From a virus (Duplodnaviria > Heunggongvirae > Uroviricota > Caudoviricetes): a stretch of DNA of 8,282 nt. The first letter of the stretch is position 1, and every line of letters starts with the position of its first letter. Under the pieces are notes generated by a model. That model was not told where the DNA came from and did no database searches. It worked only from the letters and a program-made list of their open reading frames with translations. This document shows positions 1-8,282 of this stretch, piece by piece. The stretch is from positions 1 through 8,282 of the IMG/VR virus record IMGVR_UViG_3300028481_000082. One strand, given 5' to 3'. A program made the position numbers and the translations under genes.

Positions 1-1101
1 ATTGAATCCGTTCGTAAAGGCATGGGATTCATTGATGAAGAGCAGCGTAATTCTATCGGCACCTTAGCGGCTGGCGCACGCCTTGCGTCATCGTCTCCAG
101 AAGCAATGCAATCATGGCTGCAAAACAACGCCAAGGAACTGACTCGCGTCGGTGTTGACCCTAACAGCGTTGCTCAGATGTATCAGCAGAATCCTTCAGG
201 ATTTGGTGAGTTTGTTGATCACCTTGGGATGGCTGCTCTTGGTCCGATTGATTACTTCAATGTTCAGGACAAGATGGCTGGTCGTGAAATTGACCGAGGC
301 AGACTGGCAGAGACAATCCGCAGCAATCAGGCTGGTGAAGCACTTCAGGCGAGAGGGCAAAACCTTTCCTATCAGTCAGCAATGACTGGGCACAATATCG
401 CAGCACAACGCTTGGCTCTGGATCAGCAAGAGTTTGGGTTTAAGATGCAGCAAGCGCAGGAAAAGGCTCAGCAGTTGATTAGTGAAGCACCTAAGCTGTC
501 AGTAAACATGGAAAAAGGCATCGAGACGGCTGTAAACAATGCCACAGCATCATCAAACTCAGCCAATTCTATGAGTGCGCTTGCTCAACAGTTCAGAGCA
601 GAAAAACCAACGACAGGTTTGTTCGGTAACGCACAGAACATGTTCGCAAAACTTACCGGAAGCGATACGACATTGCGTGATTTGCGCATCCGCCAAAATG
701 CCCTTGTTAACAGTCAGGTTCTTAAATTCCTACCTCCCGGCCCAGCAACGGATAAAGACGTTGAGATCGTTCGACAGGGTGCGCCAACTGACATGGATAA
801 CCCTGAGACGGTCGCAAGATGGCTTGATGCAATGGCAAACCTTGAGCGACGAAACGCGCAGTTTAATGAGTTTAAAGCCGAGTGGATGAGCGCGAATGGC
901 AACCCTGGACAATCGCGTAATGGCGGTCAGATATTGGGGTTGGATGTTAAAAAAGGTGAATCATTGGGGAGTGCCGTTAAGCGGTATATGTCAATGAATA
1001 CTGACGCAGCACCAGCGCAAGATTCGACACCTTCAGGAGAAACACCGAATCAGGTTGGATCATATACCTCAAAATCAGGCATTCAATTTACGGTGGAATG
1101 A
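1..1101 (+). CDS. Ejection (DNA-transfer) protein, P22 gp20-like; 5'-partial, C-terminal ~366 aa, start lies upstream of the window
   Basis: Frame is open from base 1 through the first in-window Met at 22 to TGA at 1099-1101. It sits immediately upstream of, and overlaps by 4 nt, the gp16-like gene, matching the P22 order 7-20-16. Gln/Ala/Asn-rich, low-complexity composition is typical of podovirus ejection proteins. Identity is by synteny and composition, not by alignment. Confidence 0.75.
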
Positions 1102-2939
1102 TGAAAGTAACTGCAAACGGTAAGACATTTACCTTCCCTGATGGTACGAGCACGGAAGATATTGGATCTGCCATTGATGAGTATTTTGCTGGACAGTCTG
1201 TTCAGCAACAAACTGTCAGCCAGGATAGCAATGAACCAGCACGTGAAGAACCATCATTGATGCAACAAGCTGGCGATTGGCTCACTGGTGGTCAAAGTGC
1301 AGGGCAAATTGCAGAACAGGCTGGTCGTGGTCTGGTAAACATACCATTTGACGTATTGCAGGGTGGCGCAAGTCTGATTAATGCAATCAGTCAGGGGCTT
1401 GGTGGTCCAAAAGTATTGGATGATGTCTATCGTCCAGTCGATCGACCGACAGACCCTTATGCGCAAACTGGAGAAACAATTGGCGGGTATTTAGTTCCAG
1501 GAGTTGGAACGGCAGGAAGCATGGCTATTGGATCACTGGCAGAGGCCGCAAATCAGAAAGGCGATTTCGCACAAAATGCAGCAAAAAATGCCGGAGTTAA
1601 CCTTGCCGCTCAGGGGGTTCTTTCCGCAGCAGCAAAGGGAATAGGGCGTGGAATAACGGCTATAAAAGGTGATATTGCGCCAGAAGTAGCGAAGAAAATT
1701 GCCACATCAGAATCGATGGGCGTGACACCAATGACATCTGATGTTATCCCGCCGAAAAATGCTTTCACTCGCGGCCTTACTCAGGATGCCGAGGGGGCTT
1801 TGCTCGGGACAGGCTCAAAGCGAGCGGAGCAATATGCAACGCGTAGTAAGCTGGTAAGCAATTATTTTGACCGTTTTGGTGAGTACAACCCTGATGATGT
1901 GGTGAAATCTCTGACCACCACGTTAAGGGGGAGGAAGGATGCCGCTGGCGCTGTTATCAATGACGTCACCAATAAAATGGGTAATGCCGCAGTTGATACC
2001 ACAAATACCATGAATGCTCTGAATACAGCGATCGCAAGACAGGAACGGCTTGGGACGTCTGCCAATCAAAGCCTGCTTACATCCTTGCGTAACCTACGTG
2101 AAGAATTAGCAAACCCTGCAACTGATTTGGATGTTACGTTTGATCTCTTGCGTCAGCACAGAACAGCATTTAGATCTAATGTTCAGGGAGATGCTATGGT
2201 CTTCCCCAACCAGGCAAAAGCAGCTACCAATATGGTAGAGAATGCAATGTCAAAAGACCTTCGTAACGCAGTTGCAAAAAACCTCGGTGCGTCAGACGCA
2301 GCAAAATACCTTAAAGCAAATTCCGATTATGCAAACGTTTATAATAAGGTGCTTAATAAAAACATTGCCAACAAGCTCAACAAGGCAAGCAGTGAAGCCA
2401 GTCCTGAACTTATAAATACCGTTGTATTAAGCAGAAAACCATCTGACGTGAAACGAATCTGGAGCGCACTGGATGATAAGGGGAAAGATGCTATGCGTGC
2501 AGCTTACGTCAGCAAAATAGCGGAAAAGGCCGGGGACTCTCCAGCCAAGTTCATCACTGAAGTTAATAAGCTGAAATCTCAGTCAGGCGGTGAAATTTAC
2601 AACACTATTTTTTCTGGAAAGCACATGAAAGAGCTTGATGCTCTTCATGAAGTTCTACAGCAAACAGCAAGGTCAGACACCGCAAATGTAGTAACTCAGA
2701 CGGGGCAATCGCAAGCCAACAGGATAAGGACGATTGGCGCAACTGCGACCCTTGGCGTATCAATGGGGCTTGAGGCTGGTTTTGGTGCAATGATGCGCTT
2801 GTATGAGTCTAAAGCAGCAAGAAACATGCTTCTCCGCCTTGCAAACGTCAAGCCTGGAACTCCGGCATATGAGCGAGCGTTAAATCAGGCTGCTAACGCC
2901 GTTCGCCCTCTCCTAACTAACGAAGCTACCAGGCAGTAG
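1098..2939 (+). CDS. Ejection (DNA-transfer) protein, P22 gp16-like, 612-613 aa
   Basis: Long ORF with ATG at 1098 overlapping the upstream stop as ATGA; an alternative start is the ATG at 1101. N-terminus [16 protein letters not shown] matches my recollection of the P22 gp16 N-terminus (MKVTANGK...), and the size is close to P22 gp16 (~609 aa). GGTGG lies at 1092-1096. Position between the gp20-like gene and the immunity region fits. Confidence 0.85.
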
Positions 2940-2958
2940 AAATGAACGCCAAGGAAGG

Positions 2959-3288
2959 CTATTTAATTCTCTTTTCAATGGCTGCAATTATTGCTTTTCC
3001 TGATGTTTCAGGAGATTTTGTAGCCATATAAGACGAAAAAATCATGTCGGTCATTCTTTCATAACTTACTATTTCCCACTTAGCCAATGCATGGGACAGT
3101 TTGTAGTTGTCATCAGTTAGTGCCCTTATGGAATTTTTTAAGTGTTTATTCTCTTCAGTTAATCGCGCAATTTTTGTATCAATTTCATGTGAGCGATCTA
3201 ATTCCTTAACCTGTTTCTTGAGGGCAGCTAACCCTGCATATAGTACGCAACAGGATATCCCAAGAGCGAGTACTACTATTTCTAACAC
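2959..3288 (-). CDS. Hypothetical small membrane-anchored coiled-coil protein (109 aa); accessory/moron gene, possible superinfection-exclusion or defence-associated function
   Basis: Minus-strand ORF with GTG start at 3288 preceded by a strong AAGGAGG Shine-Dalgarno (plus-strand CCTCCTT at 3294-3300, 5-nt spacer). Stop TAG is at 2959-2961. N-terminal 22 aa are hydrophobic (LEIVVLALGISCCVLYAGLAAL), followed by a K/E-rich heptad-like segment (KQVKELDRSHEIDTKIARLTEENKHLKNSIRAL). It is AT-rich relative to the flanking structural genes and convergent with gp16. Function is inference only. Confidence 0.65.
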   Translation of the reverse strand: MLEIVVLALGISCCVLYAGLAALKKQVKELDRSHEIDTKIARLTEENKHLKNSIRALTDDNYKLSHALAKWEIVSYERMTDMIFSSYMATKSPETSGKAIIAAIEKRIK

Positions 3289-3662
3289 ACCAACCTCCTT
3301 AGTTTTTCGCAGGATACCAGATGATACTTTATTGGTGGAGTGGTGTGTGAAAACGTGTCAACGACAAACCATCCACAACTTGGACGAATGATTTAGCAAA
3401 AAGTGCTATTTTTGGTGTTTGGTGTCATAGAAAAGTGAATAGCTCACTTTTCAACATTGCATGAAACTTGCAGGAAATGTGACATTACCTTATAGGTAAC
3501 TTCGGCGAAAATGCAGTAAATGTGAAACGTAATGGTTTAAACATGTCGCTAAAGTGGTTGTAAGTTAGCCTCCGAAGGATTGCTGATAGCTTTGTTATAG
3601 TATTAAATGACATTTGACATAGTTGGATACTTAGCTGTGGCTATCAAGATGGAGGTGTGTTC
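3289..3662. promoter_or_regulatory. AT-rich divergent intergenic control region with several dyad symmetries (candidate operators and promoters for both the minus-strand 109-aa gene and the plus-strand Panacea-like operon)
   Basis: 374 bp non-coding and AT-rich. Perfect 9-bp inverted repeat GAAAAGTGA-n5-TCACTTTTC at 3430-3452. Palindrome AATGT-g-ACATT at 3476-3486. Inverted repeat TTACC-ttata-GGTAA at 3485-3499. Palindrome AAATG-a-CATTT at 3605-3615, overlapping a consensus TTGACA hexamer at 3614-3619. GGAGG Shine-Dalgarno at 3651-3655. Exact -10 elements and transcription start sites are not resolvable by eye. Confidence 0.45.
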
Positions 3663-4106
3663 ATGCTTACTTGTTTTGATGTCGCCGACTACTTCCTGTC
3701 GCGGTGTGACGAGGATAGCGGTGACACAATCTCTAATTTAAAATTACAAAAGCTTGTTTACTATGCTCAGGGTTTTTCATTGGCGTTGCTTGGCGAGCCT
3801 CTTTTTCAGAATAAGATGGAAGCTTGGATGCATGGCCCTGTTGTCCCTGAGCTTTATCGCCGTTATAAACAATATGGTAATGGCGCTATCCCTTCTCCAG
3901 AGTCTTTTGATGCTGAAAAATTCAGCGAAGAACAGTTAGAGCTATTAGAAGAAGTCTGGGATGTTTTTGGGCAATTTTCTGCCTGGAAACTGAGGAACAT
4001 GACACACGAAGAGTCACCATGGAGATCAAACTATATTGAGGGTGTTGGTGGTTCTGAAATTAGCTCTAAGGAGATGGCAGAGTACTTTGCAACTCGGATT
4101 AACTAA
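3663..4106 (+). CDS. Panacea-domain (DUF4065 / GepA / SocA-like) protein, 147 aa; putative antitoxin or defence-system component
   Basis: ATG at 3663 with GGAGG 7 nt upstream. The track start at 3657 is an in-frame GTG only 1 nt from the SD, so 3663 is preferred. The protein carries motifs I associate with the DUF4065/Panacea family: SNLKLQKLVYYAQGFSLALLGEPLF and EAWMHGPVVPELYRRYKQYG. The family call is from memory of its consensus, not a search. Confidence 0.6.
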   Translation: MLTCFDVADYFLSRCDEDSGDTISNLKLQKLVYYAQGFSLALLGEPLFQNKMEAWMHGPVVPELYRRYKQYGNGAIPSPESFDAEKFSEEQLELLEEVWDVFGQFSAWKLRNMTHEESPWRSNYIEGVGGSEISSKEMAEYFATRIN

Positions 4107-4110
4107 CGAG

Positions 4111-4530
4111 ATGGCAAGAAAATCTAAAAGGATTATCCCCCCTGCTGAATCTACAGGTAAGTTAAAGTTAGGGCCGCAGTCAGGGGGGAATTCAGATCAA
4201 AAGAAACCGAAATTTTCATTCTGTTACATCCAAAGCTCTCACTGCATAACGAAATGCCAAAAAGATGAGAAAGCTGGCTTAGCTGATAAATTATACAGAT
4301 TAAGTCAACTAACATGGGCAGAGATTAAGCAGCAAGGTAGGCATAAGCTTGGATTTGAGAAGATTGCAAGGGGTGCAATTAAAGCAGGTATCCCCAGTCA
4401 TATAACGGAAGACGTAGATCATTTCTTGGCTTTTAGATTTGATGATTTGAAAGCCATGGTTGGTTATCGTCTTGGATCGACATTTTTTGTTATATGGCTT
4501 GATAGAGAGTTCAACCTATACAAGCACTAA
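4111..4530 (+). CDS. Hypothetical basic 139-aa protein translationally coupled to the Panacea-like gene; candidate toxin or effector partner, family unknown
   Basis: ATG at 4111 lies 4 nt after the upstream stop (TAA 4104-4106) with no strong independent SD, which suggests coupling. The longer track ORF from 4036 starts inside the upstream gene in another frame and is not favoured. Basic N-terminus (MARKSKRIIPP), Cys/His cluster (FCYIQSSHCITKC), and a beta-rich C-terminus (GYRLGSTFFVIWLDREFNLYKH). Followed directly by a terminator. Confidence 0.6.
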   Translation: MARKSKRIIPPAESTGKLKLGPQSGGNSDQKKPKFSFCYIQSSHCITKCQKDEKAGLADKLYRLSQLTWAEIKQQGRHKLGFEKIARGAIKAGIPSHITEDVDHFLAFRFDDLKAMVGYRLGSTFFVIWLDREFNLYKH

Positions 4531-4531
4531 T

Positions 4532-4557
4532 AAAACCCACCGTCAGGTGGGTTTTTT
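4532..4557. terminator. Bidirectional rho-independent terminator between the accessory operon (+) and mnt (-)
   Basis: Stem AAAACCCACC (4532-4541), loop GTCA (4542-4545), stem GGTGGGTTTT (4546-4555), followed by TT on the plus strand. The reverse complement also gives a hairpin followed by a U-run. The mnt stop codon (TGA, plus-strand TCA at 4543-4545) sits in the loop. Confidence 0.75.
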
Positions 4558-4794
4558 GTACAAATCCTTCAGCGTATCAAACACCATCTTCTTAACAAGA
4601 TCTGACTGCTCATCAGCGAGTCGTTCTGCATCGTCACGATATCCAGTCACAGGCGATGGTTTTGATAGAGCATCTTGGACGATTTGTAACAACTCGGAGT
4701 TCATTGATCTCCCATTCGCCTCCGCCCTGAATTTTAATTTCTCCCTTACTTCCATAGGCATACGGAAGTTAAAGTGCGGATCATCTCTAGCCAT
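4543..4794 (-). CDS. mnt: Mnt repressor (ribbon-helix-helix, Arc/MetJ family), maintenance-of-lysogeny repressor of Pant, 83 aa
   Basis: The 83-aa product MARDDPHFNFRMPMEVREKLKFRAEANGRSMNSELLQIVQDALSKPSPVTGYRDDAERLADEQSDLVKK... matches my recollection of P22 Mnt almost residue for residue. ATG at 4792-4794 with GGAGTG SD on the minus strand. Located next to its palindromic operator and divergent from arc. Confidence 0.93.
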   Translation of the reverse strand: MARDDPHFNFRMPMEVREKLKFRAEANGRSMNSELLQIVQDALSKPSPVTGYRDDAERLADEQSDLVKKMVFDTLKDLYKKPT

Positions 4795-4816
4795 GCCATC
4801 ACTCCAAGTTAGTGTA

Positions 4817-4845
4817 TTGACATGATAGAAGCACTCTACTATATT
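4817..4845 (+). promoter_or_regulatory. Pant promoter (rightward; drives arc-ant)
   Basis: -35 TTGACA at 4817-4822, 17-bp spacer, -10 TATATT at 4840-4845. The Arc operator lies in the spacer and the Mnt operator just downstream over the predicted start site, as in P22 immI. Confidence 0.8.
4822..4842. promoter_or_regulatory. Arc operator (Oarc), 21 bp
   Basis: ATGATAGAAGCACTCTACTAT at 4822-4842, identical to the P22 arc operator sequence as I remember it (TAGA/TCTA half-sites), positioned between -35 and -10 of Pant. Confidence 0.85.
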
Positions 4846-4850
4846 CTCAA
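4822..4850 (-). promoter_or_regulatory. Pmnt promoter (leftward; drives mnt), overlapping Pant
   Basis: On the minus strand: -35 TTGAGA (plus coordinates 4845-4850), 17-bp spacer, -10 TATCAT (plus coordinates 4822-4827). Divergent and overlapping with Pant, consistent with the known P22 arrangement. Confidence 0.65.
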
Positions 4851-4870
4851 TAGGTCCACGGTGGACCTAT
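4850..4870. promoter_or_regulatory. Mnt operator (Omnt), perfect 21-bp palindrome
   Basis: ATAGGTCCACGGTGGACCTAT at 4850-4870 is perfectly self-complementary around 4860 and contains the symmetric AGGTCCACGGTGGACCT core I recall as the P22 Mnt operator. It overlaps the predicted Pant start site. Confidence 0.85.
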
Positions 4871-4884
4871 ATTGTGAGGTGAAT

Positions 4885-5046
4885 ATGAAAGGAATGAGCA
4901 AGATGCCGCAGTTCAATTTGCGGTGGCCTAAAGAAGTATTGGATTTGGTACGCAAGGTGGCGGAAGAGAATGGTCGGTCTGTTAACTCTGAGATTTATCA
5001 GAGAGTAATGGAAAGCTTTAAGAAGGAAGGGCGCATTGGCGCGTAA
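4885..5046 (+). CDS. arc: Arc repressor (ribbon-helix-helix), 53 aa
   Basis: ATG at 4885 with GAGGTG SD. Product [53 protein letters not shown] matches P22 Arc as I remember it, including the 53-aa length. The longer track ORF from 4822 would run through the operators and is rejected. Confidence 0.93.
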
Positions 5047-5113
5047 AGTGGAAGCCCCAACTGCGGGAACAGTCAGGGCTTCGGTTGTCAGTAAATCCGT
5101 GGAGAAAAACCAA
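5045..5113 (-). ncRNA. sar: sar-like small antisense RNA (~68 nt) complementary to the ant ribosome-binding site and the arc-ant intercistronic region
   Basis: P22 is known to make a 68-69 nt antisense RNA (sar) from a promoter inside the 5' end of ant. Here the minus strand has a TATACT -10 (plus coordinates 5121-5126). A transcript starting near 5113 would cover the ant ATG (5115) and GGAG (5101-5104) and contain a stable hairpin (GAAGCCC...GGGCTTC, 5051-5082) followed by CACUUU. Coordinates are approximate and inferred. Confidence 0.5.
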
Positions 5114-5114
5114 C

Positions 5115-6017
5115 ATGAATAGTATAGCAATTTTAGAAGCAGTGAACACCTCTTACGTACCATTCAACGGTCAGCAAATTATCACCGCCATGGCTGCCGG
5201 AGTTGCATACGTTGCGATGAAGCCAATCGTTGAAAACCTTGGAATGAGTTGGGGTACTCAGCAACAAAAACTTATGAAACAACTAGATAAGTTCAACTGT
5301 ATTCATATGAATATGGTTGCCGCTGATGGGAAGCTTCGTAAGCTACTCTGCCTTCCTTTGAAGAAGTTAAATGGATGGCTGTTCAGCATCAACCCTGAGA
5401 AAGTTCGAGCTGACATCCGCGATAAACTGATTCAGTACCAGGAAGAATGCTTTACTGTACTGCATGACTACTGGACAAAGGGAAAGGCAGAAAATGCACG
5501 TAAGAAAACATCTGTTGATGACAGGACTCCGCTTCGTGATGCTGTAAATATGCTAGTCAGCAAAAAGCATCTAATGTACCCAGAAGCTTACGCAATGATT
5601 CATCAGCGTTTCAATGTGGAAAGTATTGAAGAGCTTGATGCATCTCAGATACCGCAAGCCGTAGAGTACATCCACAGGGTAGTGCTTGAAGGTGAGTTCA
5701 TCGGCAAACAAGAGAAGAAAACCAACGAGCTTTCTGCAAAAGAAGCAAGCAGCCTTGTATGGCTATGGGATTATGCCAACCGCTCACAGGCATTATTCCG
5801 CGAACTGTATCCGGCGCTGAAACAAATTCAATCGAACTATTCCGGCAGATGTCATGACTGCGGTTATGAGTTCTCCCGTATTATCGATATAGCGAGAGAC
5901 GTTTTAATCAATCACTCACGAGATGTTGATATCAATGAGCCAGACGGACCAACGAATCTTTCCGCATGGATGAGACTTAAGAATAAAGAATTACCTCCTT
6001 CAGTACATAACTACTGA
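5115..6017 (+). CDS. ant: Antirepressor Ant, 300 aa
   Basis: ATG at 5115 with GGAG 10 nt upstream gives exactly 300 aa, the P22 Ant length. N-terminus [47 protein letters not shown] matches my recollection of P22 Ant. Directly downstream of arc in the immI arrangement. The track start at 5085 has no RBS. Confidence 0.9.
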
Positions 6018-6036
6018 CAGATAACCAACGCAACGA

Positions 6037-6059
6037 CCCAGCTTCGGCTGGGTTTTTTT
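6037..6059 (+). terminator. Rho-independent terminator after ant
   Basis: Stem CCCAGC (6037-6042), loop TTCG, stem GCTGGG (6047-6052), followed by seven T (6053-6059). Confidence 0.8.
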
Positions 6060-6117
6060 ATGCCCAAAATTCACCGTAGCCATGCTGCGGCGATTCCTTG
6101 TATCTGGAGCAAATTAA

Positions 6118-8103
6118 ATGACAGATTCAATAAATGCCAATGTTGTAGTAAGTATGCCATCGCAACTCTTCACTATGGCTCGTTCTTTTAAAGCAGTTGC
6201 CAATGGCAAAATTTATATCGGTAAAATTGACACTGACCCGGTAAATCCTGAAAACCAGATTCAGGTTTATGTAGAAAACGAAGATGGTTCTCATGTTCCT
6301 GTTTCGCAACCAATAATCATTAACGCTGCTGGTTACCCTGTATATAACGGACAGATTGCCAAATTCGTAACTGTGCAAGGCCATTCTATGGCTGTATATG
6401 ATGCATATGGCGTACAGCAATTTTACTATCCAAACGTATTGAAGTATGACCCTGATCAGTTAAGGCAGGAGCTTGAAGGAGATAAAGGTTTTTTAATCCC
6501 TGGTGGTCAGCAGGAAAGATTTTATGACCTACGCGCATTTGTTGAGCCAGGAGACCCAGCAGCTCCAGACTACACGCAGGCTTTCAAACGCGCCATCGCC
6601 TCTGGTAACGGACGAGTTTTTGTCAACGTTCCAGTGGAATTTACAGAAGATCTGACTATCCCGGCGAAGTTCCGCGTAGATATTGGTGAATGTGGTTATC
6701 TGTACACTAACTCAGCAAAAGTACGCATTGAAGGATTTATCAATACTATCGGGGGTAATGATCCGTATCGCGGTTACATCCATCCATTTGGCGTTGACTC
6801 GTCAACAGTGGCGGGTATTTACACGATGCCTGTAACACTCATGGTTCCGGAAGATTACCGGACCATTCAGGAAGCAATTGACGATATCCCAAATAATTAT
6901 TGGCAGAGAATTATTATCTCAATTGCACCAGGAACTTATGATGAAGACATAGTAATCAGAAGCAAGAGGGGGTGCACACCTCTATTCCCACCTAGCGCAT
7001 CGCAACAAGCAAACATTGTTATAGTAAGTAGAACTACCGACAGAACAACAGTTAATGTTAGGTCAGCCCAGGTATTTTCATGCGGAGGCACACCATACAG
7101 CCCAGAGTTGCACGCTTTAAACTTTACAAATAGAACACACAGTGATGAAAATGCTTCAGTTGAATTTTATGGATGCACATCTGGCGCTGTTAATGATTGT
7201 TCATTCAATGGGGTAGGAGTTGATAAGTGTATTGAGGCATATAATAGTACAATATCAGTTGAATCATGCGATTTCGGTAACGAAATTAATGATAAAGGGA
7301 TGGTTGTAAAGCATGGAGGAGTATTAAGCTCAAACTCAACAAGAATAGGACAGGCGCTAAAGCCAATGTCTGGCACACTAAAAAGTTGGGTTGCTGTTTC
7401 GATAGGCGGTATCATTATCGGTAATGATTTTGGTATGTGCATTGGTAAAGTTGCGCAAAGTAGGGTTGATGGAGTACAGGTAGGGCTTATAACTGAAACA
7501 GCTACAAAATCAATTAATGGAGTAACATCTTCATTTACGCTTGCGACAACAAGGCACCATACTCAATTTCAAGACTATGATAAATTTACCAATAAAGTAA
7601 CCGGCTCAGGTTCAGGGTTGGAATATTATGCAGAAGGTGGATTAGTTGTAAGAGCGGGGACTGTTGGCGGTACGGCACTTGTAAGATATAAAAGAGAGCG
7701 ACGGCTTGTATTAAATTATGAAACATTTAACTATCTTGGTTTTGCTGTTGCTTATGGAATTACATCTGGAGTTAATTCACTAAATGGTTTTATAGTTTGT
7801 GGCTCCGTGGAATCAGGAAATTACTTTGGAATAAGGTATATAGGAAATGAAGCAAAAGGTATAATATGTAAGGATGGAGTGCAGTCAACGACTACATTAC
7901 TTAACAGCACAAAAACATATGGGACATGGACGTGCAAATATGTAGGAAAGGGTGACGGGCAGTTAATTATTATGCACAATGATACATATGCTGGTCATAT
8001 AAATGGAGTTAAGTTATCATCATATGATGGAACATATTTCGAGGCCTACATAACAGACGATAGAATACAGCTATTCGAAATGGATTTTATTGCAAGCGCT
8101 TAA
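6118..8103 (+). CDS. Tailspike protein (P22 gene 9 homologue), 661 aa; conserved head-binding N-terminal domain plus a divergent beta-helix receptor-binding domain
   Basis: ATG at 6118 with GGAG at 6105-6108. The N-terminal ~115 aa ([60 protein letters not shown]...[15 protein letters not shown]...NVLKYDPDQ) is clearly homologous to the P22 tailspike head-binding domain and, by memory, closer to the Sf6/HK620 type. The remainder does not resemble the P22 endorhamnosidase domain. GC drops from roughly 47-60% to roughly 30-38% from about 6950 onward. Confidence 0.93.
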
Positions 8104-8141
8104 ATCAATTGTCTGGTTAATTATAAATTGTTAAATGAAAA

Positions 8142-8164
8142 GAAGGTGGCGTTACACCACCTTC
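8142..8164 (-). terminator. Hairpin likely acting as a rho-independent terminator for a convergent minus-strand transcript downstream of the tailspike gene
   Basis: Stem GAAGGTGG (8142-8149), loop CGTTACA, stem CCACCTTC (8157-8164). On the minus strand it is followed by UUUUCAUUU. On the plus strand it is not followed by a U-run, so it is a weak terminator for the tailspike gene. Confidence 0.45.
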
Positions 8165-8282
8165 CCATCAAGCCAGTCCGCCCACCACTGCATCATTTCT
8201 CTGCGCTTATCGAGATACTGAGCATGGTTGTAAATTCAGCAAACGACGTAATGTGTTTGACAAAAAATTAGCGCAAGAAGAC

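Follow-up and report, generated by a model that had tools for sequence, protein, structure and literature searches.

A candidate two-way expression platform with a reused upstream module in the moron slot of a P22-like prophage

The intergenic region between the hkcB-like gene and panA

The DNA analysed here (IMG/VR record IMGVR_UViG_3300028481_000082, positions 1 to 8,282; this whole stretch of 8,282 nucleotides is called the window) represents the immI region of a P22-like (Lederbergvirus) prophage. We focus on positions 3289-3662, a divergent intergenic region that separates a leftward hkcB-like gene, starting at 3288, from the rightward panA gene, which encodes a Panacea-domain antitoxin, starts with the ATG at 3663 and is followed by the gene of a putative toxin partner (together panAT). 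A first-pass annotation of the sequence had described this region as a divergent control region and had listed four palindromes within it. The divergent arrangement is borne out by the two gene starts, and all four dyads are present at exactly the positions given (P1 to P4 in Table 1). As set out below, we read 3289-3662, with moderate confidence, as a two-way expression platform of a moron slot, with a reused upstream module whose 3' end holds the panAT promoter and with P1 to P3 as likely protein sites.

The dyads were compared with 5000 dinucleotide shuffles of 3289-3662, counting those whose arms measure 5 bp or more and whose loops do not exceed 5 nt. The region holds six such dyads (both readings of P3 counted) against 2.67 ± 1.93 in the shuffles (p = 0.088), as compared with 3.1 per 374 bp in the window as a whole. 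Taken singly, the 5 bp dyads, P2 included, are at chance level. P1 alone is unusual, as a 9 bp arm was reached in 0.96% of the shuffles (p about 0.01); only two other arms of at least 8 bp occur in the 8.3 kb window, in the Mnt operator and in a terminator. The P1 hairpin has a folding energy of -10.2 kcal/mol, three G-C pairs among nine and no U tract. A 14 nt direct repeat, TGCAG(G/T)AAATGTGA, was also observed at 3469-3482 and 3512-3525 (43 bp apart, 13 of 14 positions identical).

Table 1. Features of the window (ORF, open reading frame)
Feature	Position	Strand	Remarks
gp20, C-terminus	22-1101		
gp16	1098-2939		
hkcB-like leftward gene	2959-3288	-	109 amino acids, N-terminal membrane helix, GTG start at 3288; phrog_8100, E = 1.4e-69
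31 bp linker, mosaic joint	3289-3319	.	Shine-Dalgarno AAGGAGG (- strand) for the leftward gene; AGGA for a rightward start
Nine-codon mini-ORF MILYWWSGV	3321-3350	+	behind AGGA; sits where hkcC starts in HK620/ST160 (alignment)
Best candidate leftward promoter	3321-3351	-	-10 TATCAT (3326-3321), -35 TTCACA (3351-3346), 19 nt spacer
Family block B	3392-3412		
Dyad P0	3394-3408		TAGCA-aaaag-TGCTA; fifth dyad, absent from the first-pass list; inside block B
Dyad P1	3430-3452		GAAAAGTGA-atagc-TCACTTTTC; 9+9 bp, 5 nt spacer
Dyad P2	3476-3486		AATGT-g-ACATT
Family block C	3483-3512		
Dyad P3	3485-3499		TTACC-ttata-GGTAA; alternative reading with 6 bp arm and 3 nt loop
Small dyad	3501-3509		TTCG-g-CGAA; within CTTCGGCGAA directly 3' of P3
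Family block D			partial, degenerate
Family block E	3579-3608		
Candidate sigma-70 promoter of panA and toxin gene	3580-3608	+	-35 TTGCTG (3580-3585); TATTAAAT (3601-3608)
Dyad P4	3605-3615		AAATG-a-CATTT; overlaps TTGACA hexamer (3614-3619)
Leader dyad	3632-3643	+	TAGC-tgtg-GCTA; 8 nt 5' of Shine-Dalgarno GGAGG (3651-3655)
panA	3663-4106	+	Panacea-domain antitoxin, 147 amino acids; PF13274, E = 1.8e-24, residues 28-120
Putative toxin partner	4111-4530	+	139 amino acids, no Pfam match; phrog_8366, E = 3.5e-66
Bidirectional intrinsic terminator	4532-4555	.	end of cassette; 10 bp G+C-rich stem and T run; annotated terminator in phage Emek
mnt	4543-4794	-	
Arc operator and Mnt operator	4822-4869		ATGATAGAAGCACTCTACTAT (Arc), TAGGTCCACGGTGGACCTA (Mnt); between mnt and arc
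arc	ends 5046		real start likely near 4886, 3' of the listed ORF start (4822)
sar antisense RNA	5047-5114	-	full-length; Rfam RF00262, 91.5 bits, E = 4.8e-19
ant	5085-6017		
Tailspike	6118-8103		

A family of upstream modules shared by unrelated cargos

The segment 3376-3608 belongs, as a diverged member, to a family of non-coding elements of about 300 nt that lie upstream of cargo genes. This family was first seen at the PanA loci of two viral contigs, L121 and L150 (PanA 67-68% identical), which have scattered blocks in common with the window and in which 140-amino-acid homologues of the window's toxin partner follow PanA. Relatives were collected with a 14-mer, then with a 19-mer from the best block and then by local BLAST, which gave 44 distinct sequences from viral contigs and phage HK639; two further ones (L338 and L347) were found via a different block, block A, and the alignment comprises 46 sequences. 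A nhmmer profile built from the 44 relatives, with window-type elements left out, matches the window at 3396-3531 with E = 1.5e-12 (envelope 3376-3606). When block B, which had served for the collection, was masked, the match persisted (E = 6e-8). The apparent conservation of block B is partly an artefact of the search pattern, yet L338 and L347 retain the block with a single change.

In the 46 relatives, conserved blocks (at least 90% identity) are separated at fixed spacing by stretches whose identity falls below 50%. The window carries the most diverged branch of the family, in which blocks B, C and E and a partial block D are found and the complete set A-E is not, with block A (GGTTAAAA...GGGGGCGAAATAYTACAGCAAT) being absent or unrecognisable in the alignments. 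The 14 nt direct repeat is restricted to window-type elements and unconserved across the wider family. Copies of the window type are 94-100% identical to one another; the intergenic region is 100% identical in a prophage of E. coli GPEC859 and 99.5% identical in two phages, Emek of Salmonella and phiv205-1 of E. coli. APEC IMT5155 also carries a window-type element.

The element does not depend on a particular cargo. It precedes PanA with a 140-amino-acid protein, a 199-amino-acid protein with a YafO toxin (PF13957), a 95-amino-acid protein with a Fic/Doc toxin (PF02661), a 190-amino-acid Panacea protein with a 150-amino-acid protein, and several pairs that have no Pfam match. Family members occur in lambda-like and P22-like prophages, and in lambda-like contigs they stand at tail-gene positions such as that in HK639. 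Elements of the L150/HK639 type were found neither among PLSDB plasmids nor in the 5426 complete E. coli genomes, where only the window-type element is present (85 of 5426). The many relatives whose flanks were read have an intrinsic terminator about 25-30 nt 5' of the element, and terminators of the cargo were read in L150, L121 and HK639; relatives with a terminator on each side are typical moron units. In L339 and L344, about 150 nt separate block A from the 3' end and terminator of a gene resembling the upstream gene of other members, and blocks B-E are missing; they look like rearranged copies.

Dyads recur at three positions of the module

Perfect inverted repeats were profiled over the 46-sequence alignment. 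They peak sharply at the positions of P1 (21-36 of 46 members), P2 (28-31) and P3 (40-43), with 0-6 members in most other columns; overall, these three positions are covered in 30-43 of 46 members. The P4 position, where 3-12 members have a perfect inverted repeat, is not dyad-enriched.

What is conserved differs from site to site. The stretch around P3 is the core of block C, the best conserved part of the element and the source of the non-circular profile match; its arms are paired in 93% of cells among 43 distinct relatives, the loop is variable, and L293 carries TCAAC/GTTGA there, a two-sided change at two pairs. At the P2 position, relatives have AATAGT-tt-ACTATT or GTGATT-ctgc-AATCAC, and at the P0 position TTTTG-tg-CAAAA. 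The P1 sequence is specific to window-type elements; relatives show ATAGGC-N3-GCCTAT about 6 nt away, no dyad, or a run of CATTGGAAC-like repeats. P4 is destroyed by three substitutions (AAATGcAACTT) in PanAT variant 2 of E212/ETEC4070, which keeps a panA gene, and the alignment gave no counterpart in L121 or L150. In relatives, conservation is seen for the dyad positions of P1 to P3 and for the arm sequence of P3; the sequences of P1 and P2 differ, and P4 is lost in the nearest variant. With P4 destroyed in E212/ETEC4070 and absent in L121/L150, the proposal that the two palindromes with a TGACAT core, P2 and P4, are repeated operators is not upheld. No further copy of the P1 or P3 pattern occurs in the 47 kb GPEC859 prophage.

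Other dyads lie 3' of the module and go with particular cargos. The leader dyad reads ATAGC-tgcg-GCTAT in E212, L121 and L150, all with PanA cargos, and is absent from other cargo types. In relatives with Doc-type cargos (A2 columns 405-460, e.g. L251 and L294), two strong cargo-specific dyads, ACCACTTgAAGTGGT and GGATGTgtttACATCC, were observed directly past the shared promoter; as candidate antitoxin operators, they surpass everything in the shared module.

Candidate promoters in both directions

A position-weight scan yielded a single promoter-like position throughout the family, found in 41 of the 46 members including the window, where it corresponds to 3580-3608. The family pattern is TTGCT(C/G/T) followed by (TG)nTATTAAAT or TATAAA, and variant 2, L121 and L150 have TGnTATTAA, an extended -10. 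In the window, the candidate -10 is either TATTAA (3601-3606, 15 nt spacer) or TTAAAT (3603-3608, 17 nt spacer). Family conservation stops 2-4 nt past the -10 hexamer and cargo-specific sequence begins there, which fits a promoter module joined to a transcribed cargo. A strict consensus promoter scan called none upstream of the cargo. The TTGACA hexamer, for which a role as -35 had been considered, is not followed by a -10 at 16-19 nt, and neither L121 nor L150 has it; just upstream of it lies the conserved signal at 3580-3608.

In the leftward direction, the candidate at 3321-3351 has the top position-weight score of the region (9.8 bits), and its -10 falls in a stretch that is conserved in many prophages. 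TAAAGT/TTTTCA, spaced by 16 nt, is an alternative. The putative PsieA promoter of P22 lies at most 85 bp from the sieA start (PMC10883804), and the leftward candidate agrees with this distance by analogy. Both promoters, rightward and leftward, are predictions from these patterns.

The cassette occupies a probable moron slot

The moron concept reportedly stems from Juhala et al. in 2000. Morons are autonomous promoter-gene-terminator units inserted in the late operons of lambdoid and P22-like phages (reviewed in PMC3594210), and P22 sieA with its putative PsieA promoter is an example (PMC10883804). The cassette in the window resembles them: it lies between the conserved late genes gene 16 and tailspike, has its own promoter-like signal and terminator and is lower in G+C (0.38-0.44 over 3000-4650 vs 0.45-0.51 over 1-2900; 38-43% vs about 50% when set against the flanking genes). 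The slot is also filled variably among related phages (sieA, hkcB/hkcC or PanAT); between gene 16 and mnt/tailspike it holds hkcB and hkcC in HK620 and ST160, orf129 and PanAT in Emek, or variants of PanAT. Unlike in known morons, the roughly 230-300 bp 5' of the promoter belong to a sequence family of their own with fixed spacing and recurrent dyads, and the module is reused with unrelated cargos in podovirus-like and siphovirus-like prophages. A limited literature search found no published description of such a shared module.

Mosaic joints bound the cassette at about 3286-3320 and about 4557. The 31 bp linker at the first of these is 100% identical in HK620, where it lies between hkcB and hkcC, whose starts are 30 bp apart, and the window shares 3280-3319 with HK620 and ST160. 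Of 5426 complete E. coli genomes, 290 match all or part of 3289-3341. The window's leftward gene is the same as HK620 hkcB and the ST160/SE1 orf (WP_000890120.1 in E. coli GPEC859), and the joint falls exactly at the start codon of varied leftward genes, namely hkcB-like ones, Emek orf129 and, in ETEC strains, an ORF without annotation, some 60 codons long when read by eye. The mini-ORF behind the linker is probably a relic; its sole substitution in E212 is synonymous (CTT to CTG).

PanAT variant 2 (E212, EC.P3, ETEC4070) has a PanA that is 71% identical to that of the window and a toxin gene of about 50% identity (DNA; range 46-62%). The region upstream is far better conserved between the two variants, at 98-100% over 3351-3500, 94% over 3301-3350 and 86-92% over 3501-3650, and so is the terminator at 4532-4555 (94%), compared to 46-76% for the coding genes. 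This suggests that PanAT variants were swapped as cassettes via their conserved flanks.

ETEC6333 (L003) keeps 3289-3517 without PanAT. We rejected this as proof that 3289-3517 is a separate module, as a simple deletion between AGT microhomologies removed PanAT. Comparison of L003 3501-3900 with ETEC4070 (L004) shows that this natural deletion fused the ATG at 3511, within the upstream element, to the distal part of a 61-codon gene, which creates a new 52-codon ORF. Ends of a mobile element were likewise rejected, with no terminal inverted repeats flanking 3250-4620.

Search for signals of a gene, a structured RNA or a known operator

None of the reading frames stays open in all members of the family, and a period-3 signal is lacking, so that nothing points to a hidden small gene; a 42-amino-acid ORF at 3485-3613 was rejected as a gene because its ATG is lost in the variant 2 lineage. 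The family does not behave as a globally structured RNA either. Its RNAalifold consensus is nearly empty (-6.95 kcal/mol, covariation term -0.71), and the z-scores of the minimum free energy in 14 members range inconsistently from -4 to +2.4 on both strands, with no strand preference. Rfam 15 gave no match in 3289-3662 at E ≤ 1 and none in nine relatives at gathering thresholds, and sar RNA is its only match in the window. P1 was rejected as an intrinsic terminator since it is followed by AACATT or TATGAC in place of a U tract and the terminator scan made no call.

Operators of the c2/CI repressor were rejected because the operator region OR of the GPEC859 prophage carries P22-type operators and the P1 and P3 patterns recur nowhere in that prophage. 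Control by Mnt or Arc was rejected as well: operator patterns with at most three mismatches occur only at 4822-4842 and 4851-4869. The first-pass annotation had found no gene for a dedicated regulator in the island; this needs correction, given that mnt and arc lie at 4543-5046, with operators only at 4822-4869. A CII-type TTGC-N6-TTGC site and sigma-E, LexA, Fur and TrpR-like sites were compared by eye with consensus sequences and none fitted, results that serve as leads and not as tests.

Genomic setting

Further downstream, the window has the gene order listed in Table 1. The Arc and Mnt operators at 4822-4869 match those of P22, and sar RNA overlaps the start of ant, as in P22. The tailspike combines the P22 head-binding domain (PF09008) with a different receptor-binding part that has a weak pectinesterase-like match, which is typical tailspike mosaicism. 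A terminator-like hairpin on the + strand (2996-3015) lies directly past gene 16, within the 3' part of the hkcB-like gene. In addition to the Panacea domain, PanA matches the SocA antitoxin family NF047745 at E = 7e-20, under the curated cut-off.

Discussion

We propose that the 31 bp linker supplies the ribosome-binding site of the leftward hkcB-like gene, with the likely leftward promoter at 3321-3351. The segment from about 3376 to 3608 would be a diverged copy of a portable non-coding module that is found 5' of diverse two-gene toxin-antitoxin-like cargos in temperate enterobacterial phages. It would end in a sigma-70 promoter (-35 at 3580-3585, -10 at 3601-3608) giving a transcript of panA and the toxin gene up to the terminator at 4532-4555. 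P1 to P3, 95-215 bp 5' of this promoter, would be sites at which one or several dimeric proteins, encoded outside the cassette, bind the DNA and modulate the cargo promoter, and P4 with the TTGACA hexamer would be lineage-specific and probably functionless. Protein binding at the DNA level is the most likely role for P1 to P3 because of their sizes of 11-23 bp, very short spacers and fixed spacing. We infer that the dyads act as DNA and that a binding protein exists; control of the region by a host factor, as proposed earlier, is possible.

Several observations weigh against this proposal. Counts over the 46 sequences are not independent, as the family members are mutually related and were partly collected by the block B motif. 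The rightward promoter has a weak -35 (TTGCTG) and a -10 without the final T or the second A, and L109 and L115, which retain PanAT, have a P1 that is impaired by one mismatch and one G.T pair. The weak point is that the dyad sequences are subtype-specific without a co-varying regulator gene, which is awkward for a sequence-specific protein and keeps an RNA-hairpin explanation alive. In this fairly unlikely alternative, the module is transcribed, either because transcription begins close to its 5' end or because the phage late operon is read through, and P1 to P3 form hairpins that serve processing, stability or attenuation, 5' of the cargo promoter or in concert with it. Variable stems, conserved linkers and fixed spacing are indeed the usual pattern of RNA elements, the + strand of the window folds better than shuffles (z = -2.34, compared to -0.76 for the - strand), and the P1 hairpin stands out with z = -6. 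In addition to a few two-sided changes, the H1 dyad shows one wobble-mediated compensatory path from C-G via U.G to U-A, so local RNA hairpins are possible. A leader RNA is nevertheless hard to reconcile with a consensus structure that fails to emerge, z-scores that are inconsistent over the 14 members without favouring a strand, and the lack of an Rfam match. Spacers of 1-2 nt and short A/T-rich arms make poor RNA hairpins, mismatch variants are of both the G.T and the A.C type so that neither strand is favoured, and there is no conserved promoter at the 5' end of the module, where TAAAAT reads TGAAAT in several members.

It is unlikely that the dyads have no specific function, that is, that they arose by chance in an A/T-rich spacer whose conservation reflects recent ancestry and hitch-hiking during cassette exchange by homologous recombination. 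Such an origin would agree with the number of 5 bp dyads, which is within chance (p = 0.09), with the 94-100% identity of window-type copies, which leaves little information, with the decay of P1 in L288 in addition to L109 and L115 and the loss of P4, and with ETEC6333, which retains the region as a remnant after a simple deletion. Neutral decay, however, gives no pattern of blocks of at least 90% identity alternating at fixed spacing with segments below 50%. It also leaves unexplained why dyads of different sequence stand at the same three positions and why the upstream region is 92-100% identical between PanAT variants whose neighbouring coding genes are 46-76% identical.

Autoregulation of the operon by PanA or the PanA-toxin complex, which the first-pass annotation had suggested for the palindromes, would be familiar biology. 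Self-regulation at palindromes is common among type II toxin-antitoxin operons, and more distant PanAT loci carry strong dyads over their promoters: L150 (2935-2960) has CCATTGCTCA-aaaa-TGAGCAATGG with arms of 10+10 bp, L124 has TAATGTAA-cttaac-TTACATTA, and Xenorhabdus loci (among L009-L011, upstream of PanA) have TTGAAC-ttaag-GTTCAA. The window lineage has lost the L150-type promoter dyad. An N-terminal helix-turn-helix (HTH) is present in only some PanAs (PMC8832971), and the PanA of the window is a bare Panacea domain (residues 28-120 of 147) with no HTH or ribbon-helix-helix match at E ≤ 0.01. Because this PanA lacks a DNA-binding domain and the element, independent of its cargo, precedes YafO, Fic/Doc and unrelated cargos alike, autoregulation through P1-P4 is very unlikely. 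Moreover, P1 to P3 lie far upstream of the candidate promoter, and P4, the sole dyad at the promoter (overlapping -10/+1), is not kept with PanA. If there is a PanA-specific site at all, it would be the leader dyad at 3632-3643.

The arrangement of protein sites upstream of a cargo promoter, as we favour it, recalls three known systems without coinciding with any of them. With the operators of type II toxin-antitoxin systems it shares palindromes near the promoter of a two-gene antitoxin-toxin operon, but here the antitoxin is devoid of a DNA-binding domain, and the dyads, which are independent of cargo type, stand far 5' of the promoter. The control of P22 immI (Arc/Mnt operators, Pant/Pmnt, sar RNA) lies in the same neighbourhood, 1.2 kb downstream, and likewise has divergent promoters with dyad operators; it has no sequence similarity to the element, however, and the family also occurs in lambda-like prophage contigs. 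The consensus of CRP sites is TGTGA-N6-TCACA. By eye, and against this consensus, P1 shows GTGA...TCAC, and AAATGTGA occurs twice (3475-3482 and 3518-3525); unlike in a CRP site, the P1 spacer is 5 and not 6 nt, and the AAATGTGA copies lack the right half-site and are unconserved in the family.

For the window itself, our analysis corrects the map: the likely panAT promoter lies at 3580-3608, and the palindromes are most probably not PanA operators. Mutagenesis is worthwhile only for the TTACC-N5-GGTAA block and for the positions of the two other dyads. Prophage accessory genes such as toxin-antitoxin and defence modules are usually annotated singly, and how they are switched is mostly unknown. 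It is possible, if doubtful, that the element is an undescribed portable cis-regulatory module that places many unrelated toxin-antitoxin or defence cargos of temperate enterobacterial phages under one input, the window holding a diverged copy recruited into the P22-like sieA slot. If so, a protein of the host or of a phage might supply this input by recognising the recurrent dyads, turning the cargos on or off, for instance, with prophage state or superinfection. If the shared module controls many cargos, it would provide a common handle on the timing of prophage expression and a sequence tag for finding new cargos.

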